Below, piece after piece: positions 10,758 to 50,573 of a stretch of DNA of 64,000 nt. Origin of the DNA: Botryllus schlosseri (Eukaryota); assembly GCA_051294905.1 (NCBI GenBank), contig CM119372.1, positions 33,916,001-33,980,000 of the forward strand. The letters run 5' to 3'. A model generated the notes under the pieces. It was not told the origin of the DNA, did not search any database, and saw nothing but the letters and a program-made list of their open reading frames with translations. The translations under genes were made by a program, and so were the position numbers. Numbering within the stretch: the stretch's first letter is position 1; every line of letters begins with the position of its first letter.

Positions 10758-11214
10758 TACGCCCGTTCTCGAGCGTTCGAATTGACTAGCCTTGACTGAT
10801 ATAAATTGCAACTAAATCTAGTTCATAGCGAAAAGAAGCTCGAGAGTTGATCGCGTCACATAACATCAGGGCTGGGCACAATGATGCGAGTCGAGTTAAC
10901 ATATTATTGATTCTGAGACGAGTCGTGAGAGACGATTTCGTCAAGTAGTGAAATAACATGCTCCTTGCCACTAAGACCTAATTATGCAACTTGTCACAAA
11001 ATGAAATGAAATATAGCTAGTCAAGTCAAAAAACAAATAAATTAATAATCTTTAATGTAATAGGGAGCAATAATGTAATGAGCAGGGAGCATGACATGCA
11101 GTGAGAAATTAACTATATTCAAGCATACTTTAAAAGAATGTGTAACAATAGGTTACTTTGTTCTATAGGCCCATGTCGAGAAGGGGTTGGTGACAAATAC
11201 AGATCTCAAAACTA

Positions 11215-13473: not shown

Positions 13474-14315
13474 TAGGGATGGTGTGAACTTGAGGTTCAC
13501 GCTCGCGTTCTGTGTGTGAACCTCGGGAATTTAGTGGTTCGCGTTCACAACAGAACCTTGGTAGGTTCTGCACTGTGAACCTTTTTCATATATTACAATT
13601 TTCACTTCAATATGATAATTTTGGTTCGAATTTATTGCATTTCAACTGCGGGCCACTCTATGAATGACGCTGGCAGCATAAAAAATCAACACAAAACGAG
13701 CATGCACCTTGACAATCTCAAAGATTTTACTTGCTTTGTTACAAAAGTTTGCACCAAATTTCCAGCTTCCCGTTTATGAATATTTAGTGACTCTCTGCTG
13801 TGAGCTTGACCCGCAATCACACAATACCATGAGCGACATGCAGTACCTGTAGTCAGCGAATGATGCTTATTCAACGAATCAATGAGATCGATATCGCTTT
13901 TTGATGTAATAAATCTAGCAGTCAATCTTGACTTCATATGTTTACTGTATCGTTAAAACAAAATCCGTGCGATTGAGGCGTTGGCTACAGTTGTATCACT
14001 TGTGGTGTAGCCTAATATCGGTACCAAATATGGAAACATGTTTTACGCTCGGCCCAATATCAATGTAGCAATAGTCAGCCACCGAATACATTGTCCGGTC
14101 TGGCGAAGACCGTTAAGGCGTAAGCTTATATTCACTGGCAACTCGTCGTCGAAATTGTCGGCAAAGTGACGGATGATATTGATTTTATGGGAGTATCATA
14201 TCATTTGACTGCCTCAGTTGATACATATAGCGAGGTTTCAAACGCCACTATGTATTTAGGCATTCTGTCATTGTGTGGCCCGACTCGTCGCTAGATATCG
14301 TGTACATTAATATAG
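13474..14315. mobile_element. hAT MITE (TAGGGATGGTGTGAAC family), truncated
   Basis: Same terminus and interior as 17905-18886 (inverted) and 63331-64000. Confidence 0.85.
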
Positions 14316-17904: not shown

Positions 17905-18886
17905 TAGGGATGGTGTGAACCTCTGAAAGGTTCGGGTTCGTGTGAACGCGAACCTTTTTGAAAGGTTCTGTGTGAACACGAACGTGAACCTCGTGACGTC
18001 ATATTGCTAAATCCAACCCTATCTTTCAATGAAGTGATAGCCTATATTAAAGTACACGATACCTAGCGAAGACTCGGGCCACATAATATCGCATTGCTGA
18101 AGTACAAATTGGCGTTTTAAACGTCGCTAAATGTATCAACCGCGGTTATCAAAGGATATAATAATCTCATAAAATCAATACATTCCGTCGCTTTGCCAAC
18201 AATTTCGACGAGGACTTACCAGGGGATATAAGCTTACGCCTTAATGGTCTTAGCCAGACCGGACAATGTATTCGGAGACTGAGTATTGCTACATTGATAT
18301 TGAGCAGAGTGTAAAACGGGTTTCTATACTTTCTACCGATACCATAAACAACAAGTTATATAGCAGTAGCCAGCACCTTAATCGCAGGAATTTGGTTTTA
18401 ATGATACAGTAAAGATATGAAATCGAGATTGACCCCGTACGCCCGCTCGATTTTATACATCAGTAAACGATATCAATGTCATAGATTGGTTGAATAAGCA
18501 TCATTCGCTGACTACGTATATCGCTCGTGATGTTGTGTGATTGCGGGTCAAGCTCACAGCAGAGAGTCACTAAATATTCACGAACGGAAAGCTGGATATG
18601 TGGAGAATTTTTTGGTAACAAAAAAGCAAGTAAAACTTTTAAGGTTGGCAGGGAGCATGCTCATTTGGTGTTGATTTTTTATGCTGCCAGCGCCATGCAT
18701 AGAGTGACCCGCAGTTGAAATGCAATAAATTTGAACCAAAGATCTTATAATAAAGTGCAAATTACAATTTACCAAAAAGGTTCACAGTGCAGAACCTACC
18801 AAGGTTCTGTTGTGAACGCGAACCTCTAAATTTCCGAGGTTCACACACAGAACGCGAACGTGAACCTCACGTTCACACCATCCCTA
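17905..18886. mobile_element. Complete hAT MITE (TAGGGATGGTGTGAAC family)
   Basis: TIR TAGGGATGGTGTGAAC / GTTCACACCATCCCTA; perfect 8-bp TSD CAAAATAC. Confidence 0.95.
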
Positions 18887-19056
18887 CAAAATACACCAAC
18901 CGAAACTCTGTCAACAAAAGCAATTCGTCTACCACCTAAAAATAGTACATTGGACGCTCTCTCATTCGAAATTTCATGGTGTGGTGACGTCATATTATGT
19001 GATACGAATGTTGATATACTATGTTCTTTCCAATTCTCTACTAGTTGCTGACGATT

Positions 19057-19090
19057 ACCCCTGACGAGTGTCAGCCGAAAATATTCGGGT
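19057..19090 (+). ncRNA. Minimal type I hammerhead ribozyme motif (Penelope-associated)
   Basis: ACCC-CTGACGA-gtgtcagcc-GAAA-ATATTC-GGGT: 4-bp stem I, CUGANGA and GAAA cores, palindromic AATATT stem III, UUC cleavage triplet; stem II imperfect. Confidence 0.75.
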
Positions 19091-20469
19091 TCATTTCAAT
19101 ATGAATGGCTGATAATAGTAGCCTGTAGCATAGCTATGTGGTGTGCGTCGTTTTTTAAGGCAACTTAACGATTTAATCACATAGCTAGCAAGATTCAAAA
19201 AAAAAAGTTTTTTTTGAACCGCCCTACAGTATACACTTACTCACGTATTTTATTATCAGCTCTACGTGGCGTGTGCGATACAACGCCTTTTTGCAGGTAT
19301 ATATAGCTTTATATTCGTTATTTGTTTCAAGATAATAATGGCTAATTAATCTGTCTTTCACACAGCTGGCAAAATGTTGCGACTTTGAATCATCACTCAT
19401 AGGCAGGCCGTGTTATTTTTGGCATATGCCAAAACTGCCAAAAATAACTTATTTTTGGCATTTTTCGATTTTTATTTTTGGCAGTTTTGGCATCGTCATC
19501 TAAATAGATAGTTTCAGACTCGAATTAGTCACAAAACGCTTCATTTGGGCTTGTTTGTCAAAAGACACCACACAATGTGCAGCACCCACGTTTAATCAGT
19601 GCCAACAAACAATAAGTACAGAAGAAAAAACCTAACGATCTCATAGGTTGATAATATCAAACGAAACCACAGAATATGCAGTATCCATCGGAATCGGTGC
19701 CAATAAGCAAAAAAAAGAAAGAAAAGCCTAACAAACACGCTCAACAGCTGATTGTTACAGCTGTTGAATAGACTGAAATCATTTGCACTGTAACAGTGCT
19801 TCCAAACTCAGGTCAGCTAAGTTTGTCCTAAATTCATTTCTCGCCCAGAGAATCTGGGAAATATCGGCTTCAACGGTACCCGCTGAGGGAAAGAATGTTG
19901 CCAGTCATCCACAAAAGTTTTTCAGAGCTTTAAAATCTTTGGAGGGCCGAACCGGCATCCATACATCATAAAAAGCGATCACTTCGCCCGTGCCATCGAT
20001 CTCATCGGGGAAAGAATTTTCTTCCCGATCCTTTTCCAGGAGTTTCCTGTGTTGTCTCTCAACACATTCTATTTAGTAGCCCGACTATCATTTCTCCTTC
20101 AGTCTACCGATATATTTTCGGAGGACTTTTGTCACTTCAGGTGGCTTTAATAGTACCAACTCGCATGGAAGAGTCCTGGGAGAGAGAGAGAGAGTCTTTA
20201 TTTTTCATCAAACCAAAATACATAACACTCGGCAGTGGTGGTGGTACAGAAAATATGCATGCACAGTATTCGGTATTAGATAGGAATGATCGATAAGACC
20301 GTGAGGGTCATCTAGTCTGATCACACCAGCATCAAACAGGTACACTTGACTCTAAACAGTCTGGCTGTAAAAAAAGTTACAGTAGTTAAAAAAATAAAAT
20401 AGAAGAAAAATTAAACGATGGTAGCAAATGATCAATGAAGCAATGTCTGGGCGAGGTATGGCAACAGTG

Positions 20470-21377
20470 TTAGTGTAACGATAAGAGGTGATCAAGTAGG
20501 GCTTTTTTGAATCTATCATAAGGCAATTCACGGATATGTGGTGGTAATGCATTCCAAATGATAGGTCCCGAGTAGTCGATAGATCTCTTAGTTAGGTTGC
20601 TATTGGGTGGGGGTAAGTAGATATTTCCCTTTGACGAGGATCTCGTGTAATGGGAATGGACATGTTTAGCAGGTATGAAAAAGTCATCAAACACAGGAGG
20701 CAGACTATTGGAAAAATATTTTTGAACAACTTTTGATACTTCGAAGCGATATAGCTCATCAACTCGCAAAATTCGATGCTTACGGTAGTAAGGCGATAAA
20801 TAGGTACGTAAAGGTACAGATGAGATCAGCCGTATCGCACGGTTTTGCAGGGTTCGAATTCTGCACAGAAATGTTTTGCATGCACTTCCCCATACTACGA
20901 TTCCATATTGCAGGTGAGAGTGGAAAAGAGAAAAATATATGGTTCGTAGTATTGATCTGGAAACCAAAGATTGCAGACGGGTCATTATTCCCACACACCG
21001 AGCTAGTTTTGATATTGTGCATTCAATATGCTGCTTCCAAGACATTTTAGCATCAATAGTGACACCGAGATATTTTGCTGAGTCACATATGGAGATTTGT
21101 TTATGATTGATGTTCACAGTGAAACTATGATTGGCATTATTTAAAAGGAGCATCTCGGTCTTATCTGCATTCAAGCTTAGTTTGTTTGCTTGGAGCCATC
21201 TCGACACTTTTGGGAGTTCCCTATTCACGGATGCATGCAAATCATTGCCAGTGTTAGAGGTTATGAAGAGGTGAGTATCATCAGCAAATAGGGTTGTGCG
21301 GAATAAAGATGCATTAACAATGTCGTTAATATAAATGAGGAAAAAAGTCGGTCCAAGGACTGAGCCTTGTGGGACTC
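20470..21377 (-). pseudogene. LINE ORF2, C-terminal part (RT GVPQGS and FADD motifs to stop)
   Basis: Open frame GVPQGSVLGPTFFLIYINDIVNASLFRTTLFADDTHLF...KYLGVTID...LLSLH*. Confidence 0.95.
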
Positions 21378-21383
21378 CACAAG

Positions 21384-21700
21384 AGTAGTAGTATAGATCG
21401 GTCGCGAACTAGCGTTGTGGCTTATGGCGGGGTCGCGATTCGCCGTGAAAACCCGGGGTGGCGATTCGCCTCTTATCTCTTATGGCGGGGCCGCGATTCG
21501 CCATGTGTTCTTATGGGTGCGGTCGTGATTCGCCCTTTCGGGTATAGGCTGCGGTCGTGATTCGCCGTGAAAACTCGGGGTCGTGACTCGCCTTTTTTGC
21601 TATAGGCGGTGGCGGTGATTCGCCTGTCGTGTATTCTTACGGGTTCTGTGGTGACTCGCCATGTGTTCTTATGGGTGCGGTCGTGAATCGCCCTTTCAGG
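21384..21700. repeat. GC-rich terminal segment with ~9 copies of GGTCGTGATTCGCC-like motif (mirror 34480-34796)
   Basis: Variants such as ggtcgcgattcgcc, gccgcgattcgcc, ggtcgtgattcgcc, ggtcgtgactcgcc, ggtcgtgaatcgcc; sharp switch to AT-rich DNA at ~21720. Confidence 0.85.
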
Positions 21701-24700
21701 CATCTCTCGCACGGTGTTGAATATGTATCAAGTGAATAGTCATATGAATGAACCTTGTTAATGTGTATATCGTAAATTATTATATATGATGTAGTTTAGT
21801 CGTGACAAATGACCGATCGTGTTCTAAGTGTTTCCTCGCTATTGATCCCTACGTAGCCTGAATAGCACGCCGACTTTCAGATCGGATTATTGACACCTTC
21901 GCTGTTTCACATCTACAGAATAGTCTGCTGTTCACAAACTAACACTCCAAAAAGGTGTGAAATATTGGTAAAATCCCGCGATCGCTCACAAGATAATACC
22001 TAAGACATAACCATCGCTCGCGACTCGCTGTTACATACATGCCGATCGTTGACAATGTAATATTTTGGTAATTGGTTTGCCACAGAGCCGGCGTAGACGG
22101 TGATTCGAATATCAACAATAGCCGCGTTCACAAACCAACACTTCAAAAACGTGTGAAATAGGTTACAAATCCCACGATCACTCACAAGATAACACCAAAG
22201 ACATAGCCATTTCTCGCGTCTTGTCATTACATACATCCCAATCGCTACAGTGTAATGTGTCGATGGTTGTTACTATCAAGTAATAAGTAATGAATAACAG
22301 TACCAGCGCAGACCGTGATTCGAAAACCAACAATTTGACATTTGCCCGCGATCGCTATATGTTTCACGCCTCCCGAATAGTGGCTGACTTTAGTTGCGTG
22401 ATAAGATCCATGAAAATATTCAATCAATGTGTTAGTTTGTCAACTTGAAATGTAACTCACTACACAAATCAAGTTGAATCGTATTTGAATGTATTGACTC
22501 GACCCAACTCAAATCCTTTGACAAATTCTATTAACGCAATCTGTTGAATCGAACGTAACCTGAATATTACTGACGCCAACATTCACCCACATCGGATCAT
22601 TCACACATTCCACGCCGCTGTTTTAACAGGTATAGAATCAATACAAACTATCTCTAACCCGATAATATTCAATCATTTTGGTAATTTACCAACTTTAAAT
22701 CCATTCGCGGATGTACTAAAGGTAAATCCAGATAATCCAAAATGAAATATTTGGACTTTGACATAGTCTGAATTGAAATAGATTGACAAACATGACTAAC
22801 AACTTTCAACCCAGTCATATTTAGAGATTATACGCACATTGATTCGAAACAAGTAATGAAACATTACAACTCTATTCGCGATCCGACTTTTCAATTGTCA
22901 AAGCGACATTTTAACATCTTACCATACTCAAAAGAATTATTCACAACAAACACCAGTGTTAAAAATCTAGTTTTCACTTACTTGATTATATCAGTACAAC
23001 TAGCAAACTTGAACTAATTCATCTGGTTGTATTCATATGACCGATAATTTTTATCCAACTGTAAAGTTCGTTACTATTCTGTAAAACAAAGTATTTACTA
23101 ATCGATCCATATACGACTTGACATAAACCTATTACATTTTGAATATACGATATTTGAATGTCTGAACAATAACTGAGAAATAATTATCACAAGTGAATCC
23201 ATATACGACAGCGTAAAAGATATTGGAATGTCAGCAACTCTTTACGGTCGTAGTTACTACCACATTAACTAATTTACCCGACCAACTCGTCATGATCATT
23301 CCTGAAATCAACACAAATATGACCACTGACTTGAGTTAACCACAAAACAGCATCAAGTTTTAAATCCACTTGTAGCTTACGGATTATTTGAATGCTGGTT
23401 ATGTTTTGTTGTAATTGAGTTAACGGAAATACTATTACGTCTCGACATCTGACCATCTTACCATATTCAAAGAATCAACCACGAAAACATTGTCAAGTAA
23501 ATCCGTTAACCGACCAACTCAACAGTATCAATATGAAAAACAGCCAAACATACACGAATCCATACAAGCACTAAAACCTAAAATCCATAACAAGCCTGGT
23601 TGTATTCATATCCCTACATGTCTTTTTTATTCAACTTGAAAAGTCGTTACTATTCTGTAAGACAAAGAAATTACTATGCGGTATATTTTGTAAGATAAAA
23701 GTAATTACTTCTCGGTGCCCGCGACTTGAGATTAACATAATATGTTTGAGTATGCGAGATTTGAAAGTCTGCCCAACATGTTGAGAATTCATTTCTTACA
23801 ATCGAACGCAGGTGTTATATTGAAAATTATCATGATGTAAACATAAGGATTGACACATTGATTTGACATATGTAATAGTTGATCATGACTTGCCTATTAA
23901 ATTATTTGCGTTAATTAGACCCGGCGTTGTGGTAAAGATTATTGTGACAGCAACAAACTTTTCAGTACCATTGTTATTAACATATTGAGTTGTAAACTAT
24001 GTGTGTCTAAAATGTTCTCGATTGGAAAATTATTCAGCCTTGGTACAAGCCACGCAGAGTATTGTGGATATCGGGAAATATTTTACAAATGTCTGCATTA
24101 AACAAGACTAAAGATGAAACAACAATTTCCTTTGTTGAACAATAACCGGGGCAATACTTTATTGTCGGTGAGAATGGAAACACTTTCGCGCATTACCTGG
24201 TGTCAAGATATCACACTTGGTGAATTGACATACCACCATTTGATTAATGCTTAATCCGTTCGCATCATTTCACACTCACTTTGATCATTACAAAAGTAAA
24301 TTGGAATATGTTTGTTAGGCACCACCTATTCAACTATACTTGAGTAATACAGAAACCTCTCAGCATTAATAAAATCGAAATGTGCGCTACACTGAAATCT
24401 ACAAAAATGTGTTTGTATTGCTGTTCGTAGTAGCGATATCGATTTGAACCTCCATCATCTAACCAAACTACTGAGAGTCGTTGTCAATTTACATGACGTT
24501 CACTGATTACATACTAGAACTATTTGTGCAGCACACACGATCAGAGAAATTGGAAATTTTCCCATTGCCATTTGTCAAAGTAAATGTCGTCACAATACTC
24601 AGTCACTAAAAGACCATATACTTGTATGTGATTGAATCACCAACAATTAACTCGCTAAATCAAATCGTAAGGCAATTTCACGCACTCAGCGGATATTACA

Positions 24701-26446
24701 CAACGTCGCTTTATCGGTGTGGGTCGTTTTTTCTAAATACAAATCATATCTGTCCAGTAGAAAACAATTTTCACGCACTTGGGTAATGAAACCAGTGTGC
24801 AATATCAATACAAGATATTTTCGTGACACAAAAAATAATCAACTTACTCGATATTCTCGTAAAACGAAACTGTACACAGGTTTCATGTTTTTTGTATGAC
24901 ACGGAATTAATACCGATCGAAGTAACTGTGTTGGAAATGACTTTCATACAAATACACTCTATGTGGTTAACATTCTCATCGATTCTACTGTGATCAATGT
25001 ATACTATATGTATTCTGGATTCATTTCGATATGGCTAAACATACAACCTCGACAGATACGAATTGTCACACACTCAAGTAATATCATACCAAATAGTTAT
25101 TTACAAGACGCAGAAAATTTGTTTTGGCCGTTTCGATTTTATTACTGGAGGTACTCATCACTTCGCTTAATACAATCTAGATTTAAACCCCATCGAACCT
25201 TTGGTGTCTATCGTTTTGCTGGATACGAATTATGTTAGTCTAACAGTAAACAATTTTCACAATCTTGGGTTATGAATTCAATGTGTTGGCGGTCATTCAT
25301 TATTTTGTTTGTATCAACTAGTTACTTTGTAGGGTATGAATGAGCACCCTCCCACAACTCTTACAAAAGTACGAAGGATATTTACATCACACAAAGTAGT
25401 CGACTTTACTTCATATCCTCACACTACGAAACCAAATGGTTGTTTAGACTCTACAAACTTTTTTACACGAATGGTCACACATCTAAATATTCAAATAATC
25501 CAACACATAACTATAGTACTTACAGAAATATCATAGTTCTTGTAACAAAGGTGTTTATCGTAAGTCCTACACAGTCATGATAGCCGTCCGAGTTTGACTT
25601 TTAGAAAATATTATATCGATACATCTTTCAAAAACAAAACCATGGTCACTGCTTGAGAGACCTGTCAATGATATCACAATAATACAGTTACTTCCACAAA
25701 AAAAAATATGTATTCGACTTACTTTCCACAAATCTAACACACAAAACAATTTACTTTGCTAACGAAAAGTGCTGAGTCATCATATGATTGTCCTCACAAC
25801 AATACAACTAAAACATACTATCATACAAAATGGTCGTTATAGTTTGCACCCCAACGGTACATCGTAAAAGTAACAAGTTTCAAGAATCGAGTTATTGAAA
25901 AACGTGAAAGTGTTTCTCCTGTGTCAAGTCGTTATGTTGATGAAAGTGTATATTGCAATATCATGATCAATTTGCATTCCTTGGTCACAAACTGTCACTA
26001 TACTCTAAATAATTATTTTTCACTCAAACACAAAAGCATACTAGTCACCATTCGTTTTCATCAAGTACGAGTTCAAGAAACTTACTTACTACGACATGAA
26101 TTGTTATTTTTATGTTGTGTAAATAGGTAATCGTTATTTTTAGTAACACTTTATCAATGTCATCGAGTTGTGCGAAAAGATTTTCATGTGGTCTTGCGGT
26201 TTTAATCGAAGCACACATCATGATCTAATGTAGAGTCGTCTCTATTGTACAACAACTCGGTAATCGAAATGCATGCATTAACATTTGATCAACGATCTTG
26301 TTTCGTCGCACCAAAAATATGTTCACTGTCACAATACTCTGCACAAGACGTGCAAATCCTTTTCACCCTCGTAATAGTATACCAACGACCACCGACGACA
26401 ACGTTTAACAATACCAACGACACTGGAAACACTGAACCCACGACAC

Positions 26447-26982
26447 TTATCCGAGTAAAAATACATTTTCCTTTGGCTACATGACGCTTACCAGAGTAAA
26501 AAATATCATTATCACCTGGAGATCCACCGTTACCCGAACAACAAAACCATTTTCCTTTGGAGATCTATCGTTTACCCAGTGTAACAATACATTTTCACAT
26601 GGCGATCCATCGTTTACCCTGAGCAACAAACCTTTTTCACTTGGAAATATATTTTTTCCCTGGGTAACAAACCTTTTTCACTTGGAAATATATTTTATCC
26701 CTGGGTAACAAACCTTTTCCACTTGGAAATATATTTTTTCCCTGAGTTACAAACCGTTTCCACTTGGAAATATATTTTTTCCCTGAGCAACAACCCATTT
26801 TCACTTGGATGTATATTTTTTCCCTGAGCAACAAACCATTTTCACTTGACGGTCCGTCGTTTACCTGAGTAAAAATATCATTTACCTTTGGATATCTGGC
26901 GTTTACCCAGTGTAACAATACATTCTCACTTGACCATCTAACTTTTCCTAGAGTATCAATACCGTTTTCACTTGGAAATCTG
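26447..26982. repeat. 41-42-bp tandem repeat, ~13 copies (mirror 29198-29733)
   Basis: Unit ~TTTTCACTTGGAAATATATTTTTTCCCTGGGTAACAAACCT; CACTTG cores at 26638, 26679, 26720, 26761, 26802, 26843, 26927, 26969, with degenerate outer copies. Confidence 0.95.
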
Positions 26983-28072
26983 ACAACCACACCCGGCAAT
27001 TTGGTGTTTGTTGTATTGACGACAGTTGGAAATTGATGACAACGAACAGTGACGAAAATATACACGAACAACCGGTTTCAGAGTATACCCGCGTCGGTCG
27101 TATCACATCAATATCATCGGTTAGCCACATGAAATACCAATATGCTCTTATACATCGAAATGTATGTTTTGGAAATTGGACTATAGGTTTCGATATGTCT
27201 GTGATGTCCAGGTTCGTACTTTGGATTTTCCAGAGTCAAAGTGTCTGAATAAAACACCGCCTCGACTTCGGTAAATGTTTGGCACGCAGATAACGCTGGT
27301 CGGAAATCGTGGAATTTATGTTTCCATCGGGCTAACAACTCCAGGTTACTTGTGATTTTTCTCACACGTGTTTACTATGTTGTGTCGCTCTTTATTGATC
27401 AATACATAACACGCCATTAAGTTTGAAATCGGAAACCTCGAGAAAGTGTTAACCGGATCCGGATATCAACTCTGAATCGATAAACCATATTCAAGTAAAC
27501 ATACCACAACCCGGGTTTCCATGAAAATAACAAGACATCGCACAAATCAAGCATACTTCGCGATTATTTGCCCACACAAGAATCCCATAAGCGAGGTGTA
27601 TGACATTACATACATCATGGATAACATCGTGTCTAGCATTACAAACATCATGGGTGACAAATTCGTCTTCTCAAGTCTCGTCATGCACCGACTCTGTACA
27701 TTCAATGTGGGGTAGACGACTTGGAGACAGACAAACAGACATATTTGACCGTAACATGGCCTTAGCATGAGAATTCGTTACACGGGTACAACGTCGCAGT
27801 CAGACGTCTTTAACAGTGATTCCGCGTATGGAAATCTTAATTCGATTGTGGTTTTGTAATGTAATCCGGGTTACTGTGTTTCTGCGGTGTGAAGACTAAA
27901 TTCGTGTTGATCCCCCTGCAAGAGCGTGATGTCTATTTCACACCTAGAGCAATTATAAAACACATCTTCGAAACTTTTGGTCTAGTTCATCCGCTTGCAT
28001 TTTGAAACGGACCATCACCGCAAGACAATTGAAAAAACTTTGTCGTTACCTGATCAATATACACGAGTAAGG

Positions 28073-28348
28073 ATGAGACTACGCGTAACTGTCCATAGAT
28101 TCCTCTGGCCCCACACCGTGGTTTTACGACACAGACAAGATGCAGCAGTGGAAATATTGAAAATGAAAAACGATACCTTGGTTACATTTGATTTGGATTT
28201 TACACCTGATGAACCATACACTCGATTGATACATTGGGATGACAACTCTATCGTCGAGGTTGAGGGAAAAGAAATGTACAGATTTGTTGGTGTCGTGGAT
28301 ATTCAACGAAAATCGGGGTACATGATAGTACATGGTTCGCATATATGA
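28073..28348 (+). CDS. Hypothetical 91-aa protein in the unique spacer of the palindrome
   Basis: ATG at 28073 within a 117-codon open frame; TATAAAA at 27954-27960; globular-looking composition; no homology recognised. Confidence 0.4.
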   Translation: MRLRVTVHRFLWPHTVVLRHRQDAAVEILKMKNDTLVTFDLDFTPDEPYTRLIHWDDNSIVEVEGKEMYRFVGVVDIQRKSGYMIVHGSHI

Positions 28349-28419
28349 CTATGAATGTATCGGTATGCATAATGCTCTGTTCACTGTATCGATATCATCA
28401 ATGGTATTTGAACGCATAA

Positions 28420-31400
28420 CCATGTTACGGTCAAATATGTCTGTTTGTCTGTCTCCAAGTCGTCTACCCCACATTGAATGTACAGAGTCGGTGCATGACG
28501 AGACTTGAGAAGACGAATTTGTCACCCATGATGTTTGGAATGCTAGACACGATGTTATCCATGATGTATGTAATGTCATACACCTCGCTTATGGGATTCT
28601 TGTGTGGGCAAATAATCGCGAAGTATACTTGATTTGTGCGATGTCTTGTTATTTTCATGGAAACCCGGGTTGTGGTATGTTTACTTGAATATGGTTTATC
28701 GATTCAGAGTTGATATCCGGATCCGGTTAACACTTTCTCGAGGTTTCCCGATTTCAAACTTAATGGCGTGTTATGTATTGATCAATAAAGAGCGACACAA
28801 CATAGTAAACACGTGTGAGAAAAATCACAAGTAACCTGGAGTTGTTAGCCCGATGGAAACATAAATTCCACGATTTCCGACCAGCGTTATCTGCGTGCCA
28901 AACATTTACCGAAGTCGAGGCGGTGTTTTATTCAGACACTTTGACTCTGGAAAATCCAAAGTACGAACCTGGACATCACAGACATATCGAAACCTATTGT
29001 CCAATTTCCAAAACATACATTTCGATGTATAAGAGCATATTGGTATTTCATGTGGCTAACCGATGATATTGATGTGATACGACCGACGCGGGTATACTCT
29101 GAAACCGGTTGTTCGTGTATATTTTCGTCACTGTTCGTTGTCATCAATTTCCAACTGTCGTCAATACAACAAACACCAAATTGCCGGGTGTGGTTGTCAG
29201 ATTTCCAAGTGAAAACGGTATTGATACTCTAGGAAAAGTTAGATGGTCAAGTGAGAATGTATTGTTACACTGGGTAAACGCCAGATATCCAAAGGTAAAT
29301 GATATTTTTACTCAGGTAAACGACGGACCGTCAAGTGAAAATGGTTTGTTGCTCAGGGAAAAAATATACATCCAAGTGAAAATGGGTTGTTGCTCAGGGA
29401 AAAAATATATTTCCAAGTGGAAACGGTTTGTAACTCAGGGAAAAAATATATTTCCAAGTGGAAAAGGTTTGTTACCCAGGGATAAAATATATTTCCAAGT
29501 GAAAAAGGTTTGTTACCCAGGGAAAAAATATATTTCCAAGTGAAAAAGGTTTGTTGCTCAGGGTAAACGATGGATCGCCATGTGAAAATGTATTGTTACA
29601 CTGGGTAAACGATAGATCTCCAAAGGAAAATGGTTTTGTTGTTCGGGTAACGGTGGATCTCCAGGTGATAATGATATTTTTTACTCTGGTAAGCGTCATG
29701 TAGCCAAAGGAAAATGTATTTTTACTCGGATAAGTGTCGTGGGTTCAGTGTTTCCATTGTCGTTGGTATTGTTAAACGTTGTCGTCGGTGGTCGTTGGTA
29801 TACTATTACGAGGGTGAAAAGGATTTGCACGTCTTGTGCAGAGTATTGTGACAGTGAACATATTTTTGGTGCGACGAAACAAGATCGTTGTTCAAATGTT
29901 AATGCATGCATTTCGATTACCGAGTTGTTGTACAATAGAGACGACTCTACATTAGATCATGATGTGTGCTTCGATTAAAACCGCAAGACCACATGAAAAT
30001 CTTTTCGCACAACTCGATGACATTGATAAAGTGTTACTAAAAATAACGATTACCTATTTACACAACATAAAAATAACAATTCATGTCGTAGTAAGTAAGT
30101 TTCTTGAACTCGTACTTGATGAAAACGAATGGTGACTAGTATGCTTTTGTGTTTGAGTGAAAAATAATTATTTAGAGTATAGTGACAGTTTGTGACCAAG
30201 GAATGCAAATTGATCATGATATTGCAATATACACTTTCATCAACATAACGACTTGACACAGGAGAAACACTTTCACGTTTTTCAATAACTCGATTCTTGA
30301 AACTTGTTACTTTTACGATGTACCGTTGGGGTGCAAACTATAACGACCATTTTGTATGATAGTATGTTTTAGTTGTATTGTTGTGAGGACAATCATATGA
30401 TGACTCAACACTTTTCGTTAGCAAAGTAAATTGTTTTGTGTGTTAGATTTGTGGAAAGTAAGTCGAATACATATTTTTTTTTGTGGAAGTAACTGTATTA
30501 TTGTGATATCATTGACAGGTCTCTCAAGCAGTGACCATGGTTTTGTTTTTGAAAGATGTATCGATATAATATTTTCTAAAAGTCAAACTCGGACGGCTAT
30601 CATGACTGTGTAGGACTTACGATAAACACCTTTGTTACAAGAACTATGATATTTCTGTAAGTACTATAGTTATGTGTTGGATTATTTGAATATTTAGATG
30701 TGTGACCATTCGTGTAAAAAAGTTTGTAGAGTCTAAACAACCATTTGGTTTCGTAGTGTGAGGATATGAAGTAAAGTCGACTACTTTGTGTGATGTAAAT
30801 ATCCTTCGTACTTTTGTAAGAGTTGTGGGAGGGTGCTCATTCATACCCTACAAAGTAACTAGTTGATACAAACAAAATAATGAATGACCGCCAACACATT
30901 GAATTCATAACCCAAGATTGTGAAAATTGTTTACTGTTAGACTAACATAATTCGTATCCAGCAAAACGATAGACACCAAAGGTTCGATGGGGTTTAAATC
31001 TAGATTGTATTAAGCGAAGTGATGAGTACCTCCAGTAATAAAATCGAAACGGCCAAAACAAATTTTCTGCGTCTTGTAAATAACTATTTGGTATGATATT
31101 ACTTGAGTGTGTGACAATTCGTATCTGTCGAGGTTGTATGTTTAGCCATATCGAAATGAATCCAGAATACATATAGTATACATTGATCACAGTAGAATCG
31201 ATGAGAATGTTAACCACATAGAGTGTATTTGTATGAAAGTCATTTCCAACACAGTTACTTCGATCGGTATTAATTCCGTGTCATACAAAAAACATGAAAC
31301 CTGTGTACAGTTTCGTTTTACGAGAATATCGAGTAAGTTGATTATTTTTTGTGTCACGAAAATATCTTGTATTGATATTGCACACTGGTTTCATTACCCA

Positions 31401-34400
31401 AGTGCGTGAAAATTGTTTTCTACTGGACAGATATGATTTGTATTTAGAAAAAACGACCCACACCGATAAAGCGACGTTGTGTAATATCCGCTGAGTGCGT
31501 GAAATTGCCTTACGATTTGATTTAGCGAGTTAATTGTTGGTGATTCAATCACATACAAGTATATGGTCTTTTAGTGACTGAGTATTGTGACGACATTTAC
31601 TGTGACAAATGGCAATGGGAAAATTTCCAATTTCTCTGATCGTGTGTGCTGCACAAATAGTTCTAGTATGTAATCAGTGAACGTCATGTAAATTGACAAC
31701 GACTCTCAGTAGTTTGGTTAGATGATGGAGGTTCAAATCGATATCGCTACTACGAACAGCAATACAAACACATTTTTGTAGATTTCAGTGTAGCGCACAT
31801 TTCGATTTTATTAATGCTGAGAGGTTTCTGTATTACTCAAGTATAGTTGAATAGGTGGTGCCTAACAAACATATTCCAATTTACTTTTGTAATGATCAAA
31901 GTGAGTGTGAAATGATGCGAACGGATTAAGCATTAATCAAATGGTGGTATGTCAATTCACCAAGTGTGATATCTTGACACCAGGTAATGCGCGAAAGTGT
32001 TTCCATTCTCACCGACAATAAAGTATTGCCCCGGTTATTGTTCAACAAAGGAAATTGTTGTTTCATCTTTAGTCTTGTTTAATGCAGACATTTGTAAAAT
32101 ATTTCCCGATATCCACAATACTCTGCGTGGCTTGTACCAAGGCTGAATAATTTTCCAATCGAGAACATTTTAGACACACATAGTTTACAACTCAATATGT
32201 TAATAACAATGGTACTGAAAAGTTTGTTGCTGTCACAATAATCTTTACCACAACGCCGGGTCTAATTAACGCAAATAATTTAATAGGCAAGTCATGATCA
32301 ACTATTACATATGTCAAATCAATGTGTCAATCCTTATGTTTACATCATGATAATTTTCAATATAACACCTGCGTTCGATTGTAAGAAATGAATTCTCAAC
32401 ATGTTGGGCAGACTTTCAAATCTCGCATACTCAAACATATTATGTTAATCTCAAGTCGCGGGCACCGAGAAGTAATTACTTTTATCTTACAAAATATACC
32501 GCATAGTAATTTCTTTGTCTTACAGAATAGTAACGACTTTTCAAGTTGAATAAAAAAGACATGTAGGGATATGAATACAACCAGGCTTGTTATGGATTTT
32601 AGGTTTTAGTGCTTGTATGGATTCGTGTATGTTTGGCTGTTTTTCATATTGATACTGTTGAGTTGGTCGGTTAACGGATTTACTTGACAATGTTTTCGTG
32701 GTTGATTCTTTGAATATGGTAAGATGGTCAGATGTCGAGACGTAATAGTATTTCCGTTAACTCAATTACAACAAAACATAACCAGCATTCAAATAATCCG
32801 TAAGCTACAAGTGGATTTAAAACTTGATGCTGTTTTGTGGTTAACTCAAGTCAGTGGTCATATTTGTGTTGATTTCAGGAATGATCATGACGAGTTGGTC
32901 GGGTAAATTAGTTAATGTGGTAGTAACTACGACCGTAAAGAGTTGCTGACATTCCAATATCTTTTACGCTGTCGTATATGGATTCACTTGTGATAATTAT
33001 TTCTCAGTTATTGTTCAGACATTCAAATATCGTATATTCAAAATGTAATAGGTTTATGTCAAGTCGTATATGGATCGATTAGTAAATACTTTGTTTTACA
33101 GAATAGTAACGAACTTTACAGTTGGATAAAAATTATCGGTCATATGAATACAACCAGATGAATTAGTTCAAGTTTGCTAGTTGTACTGATATAATCAAGT
33201 AAGTGAAAACTAGATTTTTAACACTGGTGTTTGTTGTGAATAATTCTTTTGAGTATGGTAAGATGTTAAAATGTCGCTTTGACAATTGAAAAGTCGGATC
33301 GCGAATAGAGTTGTAATGTTTCATTACTTGTTTCGAATCAATGTGCGTATAATCTCTAAATATGACTGGGTTGAAAGTTGTTAGTCATGTTTGTCAATCT
33401 ATTTCAATTCAGACTATGTCAAAGTCCAAATATTTCATTTTGGATTATCTGGATTTACCTTTAGTACATCCGCGAATGGATTTAAAGTTGGTAAATTACC
33501 AAAATGATTGAATATTATCGGGTTAGAGATAGTTTGTATTGATTCTATACCTGTTAAAACAGCGGCGTGGAATGTGTGAATGATCCGATGTGGGTGAATG
33601 TTGGCGTCAGTAATATTCAGGTTACGTTCGATTCAACAGATTGCGTTAATAGAATTTGTCAAAGGATTTGAGTTGGGTCGAGTCAATACATTCAAATACG
33701 ATTCAACTTGATTTGTGTAGTGAGTTACATTTCAAGTTGACAAACTAACACATTGATTGAATATTTTCATGGATCTTATCACGCAACTAAAGTCAGCCAC
33801 TATTCGGGAGGCGTGAAACATATAGCGATCGCGGGCAAATGTCAAATTGTTGGTTTTCGAATCACGGTCTGCGCTGGTACTGTTATTCATTACTTATTAC
33901 TTGATAGTAACAACCATCGACACATTACACTGTAGCGATTGGGATGTATGTAATGACAAGACGCGAGAAATGGCTATGTCTTTGGTGTTATCTTGTGAGT
34001 GATCGTGGGATTTGTAACCTATTTCACACGTTTTTGAAGTGTTGGTTTGTGAACGCGGCTATTGTTGATATTCGAATCACCGTCTACGCCGGCTCTGTGG
34101 CAAACCAATTACCAAAATATTACATTGTCAACGATCGGCATGTATGTAACAGCGAGTCGCGAGCGATGGTTATGTCTTAGGTATTATCTTGTGAGCGATC
34201 GCGGGATTTTACCAATATTTCACACCTTTTTGGAGTGTTAGTTTGTGAACAGCAGACTATTCTGTAGATGTGAAACAGCGAAGGTGTCAATAATCCGATC
34301 TGAAAGTCGGCGTGCTATTCAGGCTACGTAGGGATCAATAGCGAGGAAACACTTAGAACACGATCGGTCATTTGTCACGACTAAACTACATCATATATAA

Positions 34401-34796
34401 TAATTTACGATATACACATTAACAAGGTTCATTCATATGACTATTCACTTGATACATATTCAACACCGTGCGAGAGATGCCTGAAAGGGCGATTCACGAC
34501 CGCACCCATAAGAACACATGGCGAGTCACCACAGAACCCGTAAGAATACACGACAGGCGAATCACCGCCACCGCCTATAGCAAAAAAGGCGAGTCACGAC
34601 CCCGAGTTTTCACGGCGAATCACGACCGCAGCCTATACCCGAAAGGGCGAATCACGACCGCACCCATAAGAACACATGGCGAATCGCGGCCCCGCCATAA
34701 GAGATAAGAGGCGAATCGCCACCCCGGGTTTTCACGGCGAATCGCGACCCCGCCATAAGCCACAACGCTAGTTCGCGACCGATCTATACTACTACT
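28420..34796. repeat. Right arm of giant inverted repeat (6,377 bp)
   Basis: Begins CCATGTTACGGTCAAATATGTC, the reverse complement of the left-arm end at 27759. Confidence 0.98.
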
Positions 34797-36813
34797 CACA
34801 AGTTATATCTCTGGTAGTCGATCTTAATGTCCCCAGTTTAACAAATTGTTTGCGATTTGCCAGGTAGCTTTCAAGTAGAGTTGCTGCAATACCCCTGATT
34901 CCATAGTGTTCTAGCTTGTATCTTAAGATTCTGTGGTTAACTGTGTCGAAAGCTTTACGGAGGTCGATAAAAATGCTGCAGCCACTTTTTTTTTGCTTTA
35001 TGGTTTTGTAATAGTCCGTTACAATTGATAGTATTGCATGGTTGGTGTTGTGGTTTGATCTGAATCCATGCTGGGTCGGAGACAGTACTGCATTCAATTC
35101 AAAAAAAATTTTGAGTCGGCAGTCAATCAGTTTTTCAAAAACCGTGGCAAGATTTGGCAGAACAGATATTGGTCGGTAGTTAGAAATTAGCTTTTTACAG
35201 CCTTTCTTAAACACTGGCATTACTCTGGCAGTTTTCAGTGCATCTGGGAAAATGCCCAGACGTATCGACTCATTAAAGAAAATGCATATAACATCACCAA
35301 TAATATTAAAGACTAGCTTCAGAAAGTGCGTTGGGATGAGATCGGGTCCTACTGCTTTGCTACTTTTCATTTCAGATAGTATGATGGCAACTTCTCCTTC
35401 ACTTGTCGGCTCAAGAAAAATGGATTTCTTGGGGCCAGGACTTAAGTACGAGAGAAAGTCATCGGAGGAGTTCGGTATTGAAGCTGCAAGATCCGGACCA
35501 ATGTTGCAAAAATACTGATTGAACTTTTCTGCTACTGCAAGCTGGTCTTTGATCATGCTGCCATTCTCGAGTAGCTCGATGTCAGCAGCACTGTTGGGAG
35601 CATTACCTTTAGTTAGGTTGATAATTTCTCCAATGGTTTTCCATGTGTTCTTGGGATCCTTGGAGCACTCTTCGAATCTTTTTTGGAAGTATGCCTTTTT
35701 GGCATTTTCTTTCATATGCGTCACTTGGTTTGCATATTTTTTGTACACTTTTTTGCCTTCGCTTGTGCCTTGCAGATAGTAGTGCTTATGCATCCAATCC
35801 CTTGTTTTGATCGCAACTAGTATGTCATGACCAATCCAGGGTTTCGATTTCAAGCGCCTTGCATTGCGGTTGACTTTCCTAATTGGGAAAGATGTGTCGA
35901 GGGCTGCCCGCAGTTCCTCAATAAATTTTTCAAAGTGGCGATTGTAGTTGTCAATTGTGAGTGGAGGAGTTTTGTAGTTGTTGAAGGTATTGCTGACAAT
36001 TTCAATATACTCCTCAATACCGCGTGGGTTCAGGGGCGTTCGAGATTCAAATTCTTTAGCACATTGTGGCAGGACCAATTTCATGTGGCAGATGATGGGA
36101 TAGTGATCAGTCATACTGTGTTGGAGCACAAAAGGGGACAGGTGATATTGATGAGTGTTGCAGTAGAAGTGATCTAGTAGAGTTTTGGATTGGTCAGCTA
36201 TTCTTGTGGGTTCAGTAATTATCTGAGCTATTCCATAAGAATCAAGCATTTCACGGTACCTTGTGTTGAAGTTGGTGGTCTTCAGCAAATCAATATTTAT
36301 GTCTCCCATAATAAATATTTGTTCGTTAGCTGCCGTTAACGTTTCCAGTATATTTGAGAATTCGTCAAGAAAAGTCTCTTGCTTTGTTCCTGGGTGTTTG
36401 TAGATGACTGCCACTGTGAGAGCTTTTTGTACATGCACTCTGACAAATATATATTCTACGCCTTCGGTTTCAAATTTTACGTCGGGCATCATGTCATATC
36501 TCACACCTTCGTTGATGTATAGTCCAACACCTCCAGCGTTCGTTTTGGATGGCGAGTGTAAAAAGTTGAAACCTGTCAGGTTAACATTAGTTGTTGGTTG
36601 TTCTTTCAACTTGGTCTCAGAGATTCCGATGATGATTGGTGAGCAATTAAACATCTCAAACAGGGGGGGAATTTCATCTAGATGAGCTTGGAGGGATCTT
36701 GTGTTTAAGTGTGCAAGTAAAATTCCTTGAGATGATGGGATGTCACTACTATTCGTTGAATTGATGGATCTGCAGTTGCTCATGTTGAAAAAGGTTAGCT
36801 TGTTTAATAACAT
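34797..36813 (-). pseudogene. LINE ORF2, N-terminal part (APE endonuclease + RT N-half)
   Basis: HLNTRSL, IIGISETKL, GGVGLYI, MGDINIDL, TLLDHFY, TDHYPI (APE); NYRPISVLP, QHGFR, IDLRKAFDTVNH (RT); frame open up to the insertion site (..RDITC). Confidence 0.95.
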
Positions 36814-37744
36814 TGACGCAACAAGAGTGTCTGGCAAAACGAGACTATGCAGCTCAGAAATAGCTAGACAGTTTGTTGCGTCACAATGTTCAACTCGATC
36901 ACAATGCAAAATTCGTGGTTGATTTTGGGGGTTCCAGTTCCATGAGAATAGTTTATATTTTAATAATCAGTACTGCGGCAGCTTCTCATTGATACCCGTT
37001 TTATCAAATTTAGCGCTCGACAAGCCGGTCAAAAATGGTCGTAAAATTGCCTTTGGACAAATGGAAAATATGACGTAAACCAAATGCAGTCAGCCGTTCA
37101 ATCTCGCTGTGCCCACACCGTTTAGGACACCATGCTTTCACCCCTAATGGGTGAGCTGGACCCAGATTAAGAAACGTGCCTTTCACAAACGCTCTTCTCG
37201 CTTGTAACGCGGTCCTGTTAACACAACACCATGAACGAAATACACTATTTGGCAGGCCGTGTTATTTTTGGCATATGCCAAAAATTGCTTATTTTGGGCA
37301 TTTTCAAATTTTTATTTTTGGCAGTTTTGGCATTTGGCTCCTGAAATGCCAAAAATAACACGGCCTGCTCATAGGCTACTTCGAAAATTCAATTTGACTT
37401 GAATTGTGACTTGACTCGACTTGACGCGATGAGTCACCTCCAAAATCGAGTGACTTTACTTGAATCGAGTCATCTTCGAAAATCGATTGACTGGACTTGA
37501 CTTGAGTCAAAATCTGCAATGACTCGTGACTCGAAGGCAGTGACTTGATCCCAACACTGATGCATACTAGGGTTGTTCAGAAATAACTTTTTTCCCGGAC
37601 TCTGGGATTCACATGATTACATTGGTTGGTAGCTATAACGCAAGACGAATATTTTGATGATATTACACTCGCGTAATATGAATCCAGAAGGCTACTTATA
37701 GGATTCGCTGCGTGTATCTTCCCTTTTAACGGACCAGCGTATGT

Positions 37745-37950
37745 GGCGAGATAGCGCAGTGGTAGGCTATAATCCGCGGCTGCAACACCAATGGGTGCGG
37801 GTTCGAGTCCGACCGAGGTCGACTTCTGAATTCCGATAATATCTAAGTGTTGGAGGTTTACCTAGGCTCCTCCTCGCCACCTCATCCGCGTCAGCGGTGC
37901 CTTACAAAAGCCTGTGCATAAGTCGGCAGTTACGAAAAATAAGAACAATA
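37745..37950 (+). mobile_element. tRNA-derived SINE family 2
   Basis: A box TAGCGCAGTGG, B box GGTTCGAGTCC, TGTTGGAGGTTTA core shared with 55238-55449; A-rich end. Confidence 0.65.
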
Positions 37951-38499: not shown

Positions 38500-41400
38500 T
38501 GAAAGCGTAGAAAAAATGTGGAAAAGCCAGGAGATGGGGTTGAGCTCTGTGAAGTAAATCGAACCAAGTGTGGAACACTTGCATGGCAAGCGCCATGAAG
38601 CTACACTATAATCAAATGGAGGCACCAACTGAACTTCTTCCAGGGCTGAACGTCATTTCTTGGCAATTTCAGTGGACGGGGGAGAGTCTGAAGACGAACA
38701 CATCGATTACCTCCTTACTATCTGCGAACGCCAATCTATGAAAAGAAAAGAAAAGATCGTCGAAGGATCACAACTGGGGTTTTCTGCGCCGACACGGGAA
38801 GCGTCCTCAAATTGAAAAACGTCGTAGAAACCTAATACCCGCCAAGCTGGGAGGAGCGGCAACCTATAGACATGAAACTACGTAATATAGGTGACTCCTC
38901 CCACGTTGACTCCTTAGTAATAATCAATATCGACGGACTGTCGGCTCCATTTGCGATCGAGAAAGGAGACCTCTCGATATTGTAGGTCTAAAATGGATTG
39001 ATCATGTACAACAATTACCAAACATAGCGACTGAATTTGAATCTCCGCCTAATGCAAACGAAGAGTTGTCTTTAGTAACACTTCATGACGAGATCTCGTG
39101 TGATCAGCGGGACGGAACCAAAGTCGGAAGCAGTCTTCGCGACACTGTAACCGATGATGGGTTGATGGAAGCTGCAAATCAAATAAGCGTCGAGTCGGCA
39201 CGTTGTCTGTGTCGCCGCAGGCCGTTGCCGCTGGCGCAAGTGTCGAGATGGTAATCACCACTGGCGCGAAATGTGTCGAGTCAGGAATCCCTGCTGGCAC
39301 CAATCATAAATACGCCGATCTTACGACGGCAACTGTCTTACCTTCTTTCCCAAAAGGTCAAAAAATATGGGAAATCCCTAGTGTTGGGTCAGGTAGCCCC
39401 TGCTGGCACTAGTCGAGAAAGTGTCGGGTCAGTTAGCACTGCTGGCACTAACTAAAGATGTGTAGAGTCAGGAATCCCTGCTGGCACCATTAATGAAGAC
39501 GTCGAGCGCGGAATCCCGGCTGGCGTAAATAAGGACCTGCACGAGAAAACTGGTCCTAAATGCTCTCGTGGATGCACTTGTCCGAATAACTGTAATGATT
39601 CGGCACATAGATGCATGACGACAGCCACAGTCATGAGTACTACCCCAAAAGGTTCAAACAAAGCAGCTATTGCCGGTCAACCGGATACACGCCCGGTCAT
39701 GTCCGGCAAGGAGTCTGGGGATTTTAAGATGCACGTCTCCCCAGAAAGGGGCCCCGGCGGCGACCGAATCCGCCGGCGTGACGGTAGGCGTGGGCACACG
39801 CCGAGATCAGAGGTCAGATTGAATAGGTTGGGAATCCCCGCTGACAACGAAGAACCTCGCCCTCTCTCCACCAACACCAAAACCCCGTTCATCACGAGAT
39901 TCGCATTGGGCCAATAACTGGCCCGATTACTATGTAGCCTAACCTTACAACAAGACACCAGTCCCAGCGTGAAGACGGAACTCGAAAGTCTCTGTGCACA
40001 ATCGGTAGCACTGGCGAAACTGTCATACAAACCTCCTGACTTTTGACTGGCCTAGAAAATATCGCCATTCCTGAAGGAGTCTTGACAGCTGTTTATGATC
40101 CATTTGCTTCCGAACTTGATAGCCTGCGGTTCCAACTCAGCGCCCCGCAATCCATGAAATACCAATGTGACATCGGACGTAAGGACCCATCGACTAAGCC
40201 TTTCGTTTCTGGCCCTTATAACCCGACGCGGGAGGGTCAGGCGAAGGCACTAAAGGAAGCAATAGATATAATACCTTACTTTGGTATTATTGAACAAGGT
40301 TTTGCCGAATGAAAATTGGCTATTTTTGTTGTTCATGAGAAAATGAATGAATTACTACAAGACAAGGCGAGTCGCACTCGATAGTAGCTAGACGGACGTC
40401 AGAGGTAAACCCCCATCCCAAGAAGTGTACATGATCGCTTACTACAGTCCGACGTGGGTAACTCCAGCGGCGAAAGACTATGATCCAAGCACTACAGCGC
40501 TGAAACATCTGCCACCCCTAACAATACAATGGCGGATGAAAGCGAGGCTGGTGCAAGTAAAACGATCGAAATCGATGGCTAACAAAAAGGGGGAGTATAA
40601 AACTGTCAAACCAATTGATGCGACTTATGGGAAGTAACAGTTGCAAACTCTTCGCGCACGAAACCAAACCGACGGAACGACGAAAATCATTGGTGAAACA
40701 CCTACAACGTCGCGAGTGCATCCGGTCACCACTGCGAAGGCTTTGCAGAACTCCACGGAAGACGGCAGGACCGACATCGGAACGGACTACCAAAACCCGG
40801 ACCACAACCGTAAGGTAAGTACCGAAACAACTGTTTTGTATTCAACAGGAGACGACAAAGACGACTCGTCCTCGAAGAGTGTCGAACTAATGAATACTAC
40901 CTTGGAGTCAACGATGGCTAACGCATCACCACTGCTTGGGCAGAAAACCCGAAGTTTAGGAACACCCGCTCCTGAGTATTCCAGAATATCAAGAACCACC
41001 GTGGGGAAGACAACCACAGATTTCGTTGACTACAACTATACTCGATGGCTGCACGAACTGGTGATGATGGAAGGTGGATATAAGGTAAGAGAATTATCCT
41101 TGATCGATAGGGTTATTATGGAAGGTGCAAAGCTGATACCTATCATGGAACCAGTGGTTGTAATATTGGTGGTAACAGGGTTGATGGCTCTGGTGATTGA
41201 GTTATGGGTAGGTTGTATAAGGTGTCGTCGACGTAGAACCTTGAATCTTCCGAGGAACACGAGGAGACGTAACGGAACAAGTCAATGGATGGCGATAAGA
41301 GTAATACGGAACACAACGGAGAATGACTAACTCCGAAGGTAAGAATTGGTGTTTAAGATTTAGATGTAAATACGGGATTTTCATAGTTTGTTATAGGGAA

Positions 41401-44151: not shown

Positions 44152-44764
44152 AAGTCAGTGAGTAAATGGTCGAGTCCGCGTCATAGTGTTATGACTCGAG
44201 TCCGAGTCCAAGTCATTGTGTTTTGTGTTCACTGTTCAGTTTTGAGTTCAATCGGGTTCAACCCACATTTGTCAACTTTGCTCCAATGATATAGAACAGC
44301 GGTTCTCAACCTTTTTTGAAACGCGCCCCCCTTGGCGATGGTCAAAAACTCGCGCCCCCTGGCCCCCCTTCATTTATCGTCATGTCAAAAAGAGCAAGCA
44401 TATCATCTAATACAGAGGTGGGCAACCTTCCTGCTAATCATGGCCGCATTTCGATTACTTGAATCTCGAAGAAAAATTTCAAATAGGATAAATGTGCTTA
44501 AAACTAATATTATTTATGTGTATTTACGAAAAAACTTTGAGCGTACTTCAAGCATTCAAAATCCTTGACAGTTGGACATTTTTTAGAATTTCATCCTCCC
44601 AGACGCAGTTTTTACGGTGAAATTTTGGAGATGTCCGTGAAATTCCGGACGTATGGCAACCCTAGTTTTGTACCATGTTTCTAACTTTCTGTAATCGTTG
44701 CTGCTGTCCGGTGTAATGAATTTAGTCATGTCTAGATGCTGAAAAATTTGAGATTGAAATAGTA

Positions 44765-45100
44765 ACCGATAAGATAGCGTAATGGTTAAGCGTCCGGCTT
44801 CTTGATCGGTAGGTCGTGGGTTCGATTCCCGGCCGGGTCAGACCAAAGACCTGATTAGTAACACTGGTATCCATGGCTTCCCTGCTTGACGCTCATGCAT
44901 TACTGGGATGGATAGCATGGAGGAATGGTACAAGACTTAGAAAGCCGTAATGGCTATATCTGCACTTCCTTGTCCAGCGGCTCATGCACCCAGTGTATGC
45001 ATATGCGCAGATCGTGTGTATGCTGTAAGTTTATCATGAGTCGGTGTATATGCCGAAAAAACATCGAGGACAAAAATAAACTACGTCCTTTCCTTTCCTT
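44765..45100 (+). mobile_element. tRNA-derived SINE family 1, full-length
   Basis: A box TAGCGTAATGG, B box GGTTCGATTCC, central GGGTCAGACCAAAGAC...CTTCCCTGCTTGACGCTCA, tail CCTTTCCTTTCCTT. Confidence 0.9.
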
Positions 45101-45282
45101 AACGCTGCAATATGGCCTCCACCTCAAAGCCCCCTAGGATGCGGTAAATTTTTGGTGCCTTGTTTATACGTAAACATTGGTGTATGCGAAGCAGTGTTTG
45201 GTTCAACTTATCGCTGTGAATCAGCTCATCAAAAACAAACACAAAACACGACTCACTACTCAGAATTACAGTGTCGAGTTAC

Positions 45283-50312: not shown

Positions 50313-50573
50313 GGCTTAAAACCAGTTCAGTAATTCCTTAAATACAGTTATTAAGCCATGCAGCAAGGTCTAAAACGGTATTTTCTGTATCATTCCGTTC
50401 TATAAGATGGACGCAATTGTACGGAAGGACAAAAGCGGCTATGAATCCAGCACGGCCTTGTGTGAGTTCATTGTCAATTGTTACTGAATGGTTCGTCGCT
50501 GTTTCACCATAATTTCTGATCCTTGGCATATGGATCAGCTTGGATCAGACGCTCATCTATCCAGGTAACAGTC

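Follow-up and report, generated by a model that had tools for sequence, protein, structure and literature searches.

The window analysed here, a stretch of 64,000 nucleotides of the genome of Botryllus schlosseri, carries a large palindrome that lies between the two halves of a LINE ORF2. This organization raises the question of whether the palindrome is a genuine and recent integration, as an earlier note on this DNA had proposed, of the type of element to which it belongs and of how its two arms came to be nearly identical. The ends of the insert mark a genuine and recent integration, and the element is very probably genuine over its whole length. The overall reading that we hold to be probable is that of a nested, non-autonomous Maverick-type palindrome whose arms are corrected from the tip inward in protein-primed copying.

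The interrupted LINE ORF2

The LINE is found on the minus strand. The 5′ half of its ORF2 (34803-36813) codes for the APE endonuclease and the start of the reverse transcriptase (RT), while the 3′ half (20470-21377) codes for RT domains with the FADD motif and for the C-terminal region; the LINE 3′ end (20180-20202, minus strand) carries AATAAA and, behind it, a (CT)n tail. The Pfam RVT_1 domain (PF00078) is split between the two halves, profile positions 5-112 being located in the right (5′) frame and 119-205 in the left (3′) frame. The APE endonuclease domain (PF03372) is found in the same right-hand minus-strand frame as the RVT_1 start. The sequence CACAAG is present at 21378-21383 (left copy) and again at 34797-34802 (right copy), an exact 6-bp repeat with a chance probability of ~2e-4. 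This duplication and the two in-register halves confirm the earlier claim that insertion of the palindrome splits the LINE ORF2.

Excision in silico joins 36909-34797 to 21377-20470 in a frame of 3,021 nt whose sole stop is the terminal one, as had been anticipated. In a control of 17 excision registers, five are stop-free (shifts -6, -3, 0, +3 and +6), so that an open frame defines the joint no further than modulo 3; it was consequently ruled out as proof of the exact junction. Protein P0001 (545 aa, coded by an ENA contig) matches the LINE at 236 of 240 residues in the 5′ half and at 288 of 301 in the 3′ half (17 of 541 residues differ). P0001 is continuous across the insertion site, and the three residues (9 nt) found between its matched halves are those that the excision predicts. 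Taken together, this spacing and the CACAAG duplication fix the exact insertion site and the 6-bp length. The comparison with other LINE copies suggested earlier thus delivers an independent protein that is unbroken across the junction with the predicted spacing. P0001 is a sister copy of the LINE, which does not imply identity with the present locus.

A search with the LINE 5′ half yielded a set of 101 homologous proteins. The G[VI]PQGS motif, just upstream of which the insertion cuts, is present in 66 of them. The next-best matches after P0001 in this set have just 35-36% identity across the 5′ half, and one LINE homologue bears the label “outcast”. The joined frame had been counted from 36909; it is indeed stop-free over 3,021 nt, but 36909 is a TTG codon, and an ATG in frame is first encountered at 36813. 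When the stop-to-stop frame is tested with its residues 1-51 alone, no LINE match is obtained (the lowest E value against the retrieved proteins being 1.5), and P0002, the closest full-length relative, starts at the place matching 36813. ORF2 most likely starts at 36813, with a predicted length of 974 aa.

No ORF1 and no long frame are found upstream of ORF2. The space between the ATG at 36813 and the sequence of the surrounding element (from 37227) is at most ~415 bp, the sequence at 37227 being already part of a neighbouring repeat family (loose end of a contig from run X1), and there is thus no room for ORF1. The search for a target duplication of the LINE returned only chance 7-mers. The LINE residues coded at 20802 and 21248 differ from P0001 and also from 99.6% and 86%, respectively, of the summed depth of X1. 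The description of the LINE as perfect and undamaged is accordingly not upheld: it is devoid of ORF1 and departs at these two amino acid sites from P0001 and from most family contigs. The CpG observed/expected ratio is 0.63-0.78 in the LINE halves and ~1.0, not depleted, in the window flanks.

The CR1/L2 group of APE-type non-LTR elements includes Crack, Daphne, Kiri and Outcast. The present LINE resembles this group in having APE and RT in a single ORF2 of ~970 aa, a microsatellite 3′ tail and an unclear target duplication. It differs from full-length members in having no ORF1, and is taken as a putative member of the group.

Structure and reality of the palindrome

The insert (21384-34796; 13,413 bp) is a near-total palindrome with non-mirrored flanks whose termini are AGTAGTAGT at the start and ACTACTACT at the finish. 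The left arm (21384-27759, plus strand) and the right arm (28420-34796, minus strand) are 99.87% identical. They are distinguished by 7 substitutions and 1 indel, that is, at 8 of 6,376 places (95% interval 0.05-0.25%). The ORFs of the left arm are all at most 146 aa long and six read-through frames are free of Pfam families. The arms are spaced by a single-copy loop of 660 bp (27760-28419) whose longest internal inverted match is 8 bp. A G+C-rich subterminal array (21431-21703, plus strand; mirror at 34477-34749) features a GATTCGCC-like motif each 26-36 bp and may offer candidate binding sites for the enzymes of a helper element. A second, tandem array of 41-42-bp units lies inside the arm (26447-26982, plus strand; mirror at 29198-29733).

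Contigs of 4 of the 24 public sequencing runs listed were compared with positions 18900-26400, the loop lying outside that range. All 30 bins of the range are covered in the four runs, with many variants of 90-99% identity; in run X1, 135,846 of 183,860 aligned records are 90-99% alike. This complete coverage by variants reveals that the LINE and the arm are both abundant families. A 373-letter contig of run X21 (record 28) follows the LINE to 21383 and then continues for 160 letters off the arm, as an unbroken LINE would. In X1, no contig bridging 21383 is found among 32 pieces listed of ~141,000, and no empty allele of the present locus was seen in the contigs of the four runs. Words of the stretch were found in runs X5-X15 and X21, which are labelled as four other organisms and marine metagenomes; those from other organisms and seawater whose share is 0.2-0.35 are no evidence. 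Coverage of the 30 bins by X21, including the repeats of the host flanks, is more readily explained by a close relative or by carry-over of DNA than by transfer of the element only.

The claim that the palindrome is a real integration holds for its ends, which have the 6-bp duplication and Maverick-type motifs, the unbroken P0001 as a counterpart and the X21 contig whose match ends exactly at 21383. It was overstated for the interior. Likewise, the argument that the differing flanks exclude a fold-back artefact is valid for both ends and does not vouch for the 13-kb interior: the different LINE halves found at the flanks prove the ends, and an artefact in the interior is unlikely. Such an artefact of assembly or library, in which a fold-back read or a mis-join of a high-copy repeat replaced the true right part between real ends, is in our estimate very improbable. 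Fold-back reads exist, with up to ~2 kb between segments (PMC12870357), the arm belongs to a highly abundant repeat, no bridging read is seen at the LINE/arm junction among the pieces listed, and the arm differences are rich in transversions and close to the hairpin centre. A fold-back read retraces the same locus, however, and would mirror the LINE 3′ half, whereas each arm enters a different LINE half. Furthermore, genomic ONT data contain ~0.6% of fold-back reads and HiFi data almost none (PMC12870357), and the conserved loop gene has relatives in independent assemblies.

The enclosing DNA transposon

The LINE is itself located within an older, internally deleted DNA transposon (19404-37367) that has a 22-bp terminal inverted repeat, CAGGCCGTG..., and an 8-bp target duplication, CTCATAGG. 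The left copy of this duplication (19396-19403) is identical to the right copy (37368-37375; chance ~1e-5). hAT elements have a short terminal inverted repeat and an 8-bp duplication, and the duplication length suggests that the outer element is hAT-like. A decayed frame of 133 codons (20180-19782, minus strand), which we take to resemble the end of a transposase, has no relevant Pfam family, and 0 of 1144 candidates scored in the search for a transposase in the outer element. Its right end (37253-37367) carries a second, direct copy of the left 22-bp repeat, which turns the final 115 bp into a small hairpin-like unit; X1 contigs show the same layout in other copies. The locus is composed of three nested insertions in the order old DNA transposon, young LINE and palindrome. 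Nested insertion as such is ordinary.

Class of the insert

The ends of the palindrome recall Maverick/Polinton elements, which were reportedly treated by Kapitonov and Jurka in 2006. The commonest Maverick end motif is 5′-(AGT)2//(ACT)2-3′, another being (AG)3//(CT)3, and the repeated end motif serves protein-primed “jumping back” (Barreat and Katzourakis 2021, PMC8097293). Mavericks are recognised by ends of the type (AGT)2//(ACT)2 together with a 6-bp duplication (PMC8097293; PMC3014272). The insert has (AGT)2//(ACT)2 ends, a 6-bp duplication and terminal inverted repeats. Protein-primed polB, integrase and the capsid module, which define an autonomous Maverick, were not found in it, the longest ORF being of at most 146 aa. 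The search for Maverick remnants in the arm and loop gave 0 Pfam families in six of six frames read through with X. There were 0 Rfam matches over the window, and searches with the end pattern of the insert were blank for both metagenome contigs and viral contigs (0 matches each). In view of its sequence features the insert is classified as a non-autonomous Maverick/Polinton-type element, of which 95% is one inverted repeat. Since no Maverick gene remnant is found in the arms, descent from Mavericks is deduced solely from the ends and the duplication length.

The organization of the insert is shared only in part with known Mavericks. AGT-repeat ends, the 6-bp duplication, terminal inverted repeats and a comparable length (13.4 kb versus ~17 kb) are common features, while the insert is devoid of polymerase, integrase, ATPase, protease and capsid genes and has one small unrelated gene in the loop. 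Its inverted repeats of 6.4 kb account for 95% of the element, as compared to 584 bp in a Maverick of Anolis (PMC3014272) and 744 bp in one of C. elegans (10.1101/2024.01.15.575659). Butterfly Polintons, according to the Pannagram study (10.1101/2025.02.07.637071), have gene-bearing terminal repeats of ~2 kb and mobile derivatives devoid of polB. They are thus similar to the insert in their enlarged inverted repeats, and show mobility of derivatives without polymerase; they differ in that core genes are kept and the repeats make up the smaller part of the element, whereas the repeats of the insert are 3x longer and carry no recognisable gene. No near-total, gene-poor palindromic Maverick or satellite was found among the open-licence papers listed in searches aimed at it, and Repbase or subscription papers may hold one. 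The term “palindrom” is not used in a review on giant transposons (PMC6431247).

It is quite improbable that the insert belongs to another superfamily (Galileo/P, FB/Mutator or Ginger), as a foldback transposon that moves by cut and paste and has Maverick-like ends by chance. In FB/Mutator the duplication measures ~9 bp, and Ginger elements have the termini TGT...ACA. Foldback elements are often geneless, and their inverted repeats are long and repetitive inside (PMC3573991); the tandem arrays inside the arms are a shared feature, and no Maverick protein remnant is found in the insert. The likeness to Galileo and FB of Drosophila extends to their geneless copies and to repeats grown by conversion (PMC3573991). 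Galileo, however, has a 7-bp duplication and repeats of 0.3-1.2 kb. Galileo/FB elements are described with a 7-bp duplication, a P-type transposase, repeats of at most ~1.2 kb and no AGT-repeat ends (PMC3573991), whereas the insert has a 6-bp duplication and ends that match the commonest Maverick motif.

The loop gene

The loop contains a 91-aa ORF (28073-28348, plus strand) that is conserved in 5 relatives, all of 90-93 aa and 64-93% identity. Their kept length and the conservative nature of the changes suggest that the ORF is a real gene. The five relatives are borne by contigs of 671-1075 bp, the size expected if loops assemble separately from the repeated arms. The loop protein has no Pfam family and no relative in viral contigs; in PHROG the window copy is without match and the best E (0.076) is for a relative. 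Among 1.84 billion representatives one true relative was found, in addition to one short low-information match. The AlphaFold model is poor (pLDDT 56), and fold searches gave no match in PDB and BFVD at E <= 0.001 and, in a further comparison, a best Z of 2.7, results that are silent on fold novelty. Placement in a protein atlas next to small phage tail-type domains (0.93-0.96) is taken as a lead only, the recognition value of 2038 being below the 2300 mark.

Other features of the window

A 1040-codon open frame (7689-10811, minus strand) codes for RCC1 repeats and a HECT domain, as in a small HERC-type ubiquitin ligase (E 5e-90). Its first Met is at codon 19, it is intronless and it is possibly a retrocopy. 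At ~37735-37830 and 44755-44840 (plus strand) there are two SINE-like heads of tRNA origin, in which motifs resembling the A and B boxes are present; ARAGORN detected 0 tRNA genes over the window, these heads included. A repeat beginning with TAGGGATGGTGTGAAC is found at 13474-14315, 18042-18886 and 63317-64000 (77-83% identical), its first two copies being mutually inverted, and a direct repeat of 1.3 kb at 45282-46579 and 50573-51859 is 81% identical. The frames 40638-41330 (plus strand, 230 codons) and 48859-49464 (minus strand, 201 codons), for which no Pfam family was found, are perhaps host exons.

Arm differences, age of the insertion and proposed mechanism

All 8 differences between the arms fall between 24578 and 27641, in the inner half, and none occurs in the outer 3,194 bp. 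This polarity is supported by a KS test (p = 0.006) and by a mean relative position of 0.82 (p = 0.0006), figures that are post hoc and derive from 8 events in a single copy. Homogenisation inward from the ends is favoured by this distribution: even decay after a single snap-back would scatter the differences, and the clustering observed fits a correction that starts at the ends. Five of the 7 substitutions are transversions (p ~0.06 versus the family spectrum), which makes errors near the hairpin centre possible and counts against the end-correction reading. At 7 of 7 arm sites, hand-picked among 40 rows listed of 428, both arms share the letter of the window where at least 95% of the X1 summed depth differs. 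Such family-rare letters common to both arms indicate that the arms were copied from each other after this lineage had split from most of the family.

The use of the arms as a plain LTR-like clock was ruled out, as their differences are unevenly spread. The time elapsed since insertion was approached from the LINE frame. In simulations of decay of both LINE halves, with indels set at an assumed rate of one tenth of substitutions, an open frame survived a divergence of 0.1% in 75% of trials, of 0.5% in 20% and of 1% in 4.5%; with substitutions alone it was open in 46% of trials at 1%. The LINE has probably decayed by less than ~1%. The proposal that the insertions are young is therefore sustained by the open frame and by the lack of any arm difference over the outer 3,194 bp, with the reservation that the arms are no simple clock. 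A recent insertion is supported. The arm differences may predate it.

The mechanism that we propose for the Maverick-type palindrome is as follows. The insert would supply the ends only, and an autonomous Maverick would lend it a polymerase that is protein-primed and an integrase of the retrovirus type. Copying would begin at an AGT-repeat end and displace one strand, which would then form a panhandle of 6.4 kb by folding. One arm would be corrected on the other from the tip onward, with an effect that weakens inward, giving identical tips and differences near the loop. The integrase would finally make a 6-bp staggered cut. Most of the 8 arm differences would already have been present in the donor, and the insertion would be younger than the 0.13% arm divergence suggests. 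A panhandle is a standing model for the restoring of homology in protein-primed replicons such as adenovirus and PRD1, which direct evidence has yet to confirm (PMC11886824). Helper, panhandle and correction are all inferred.

A rather unlikely alternative is that the insertion is real and that its arms were made identical afterwards by gene conversion within the chromosome, through cruciform formation or break repair; the arms would then be silent on replication and the insertion perhaps somewhat older. Conversion is known to lengthen and homogenise terminal repeats in Galileo (PMC3573991) and acts likewise in linear organelle DNAs and plasmids (PMC3673629), and the family-rare letters common to both arms are consistent with it. 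Repair of a cruciform in place, however, would be expected to act mostly at the loop and not at the tips, and the open LINE frame limits the age of the insertion to roughly 1% decay.

Beyond the correction of arms during protein-primed copying proposed for this copy, we put forward tentatively, and with more doubt than confidence, that Mavericks have helper-dependent “hairpin satellite” replicons. These would be near-total palindromes close in size to the helper genome, with their own selected 91-aa loop gene and with arms rewritten from the tip inward at each protein-primed round.

The architecture of the insert and its tip-to-loop gradient are the parts that deserve follow-up. The coding-frame target and the unbroken sister protein make the empty site known to the base, with a duplication of 6 bp, and the present copy is a clean reference for a family that at first sight resembles an assembly artefact. 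Maverick replication has been modelled but is not known to have been observed, and the two aligned arms found in each copy are a built-in test: the positions of arm differences pooled over many copies separate an end-started panhandle, a central snap-back and conversion in place. If the proposal is true, the gradient from tip to loop would preserve a legible trace of the intermediate panhandle.
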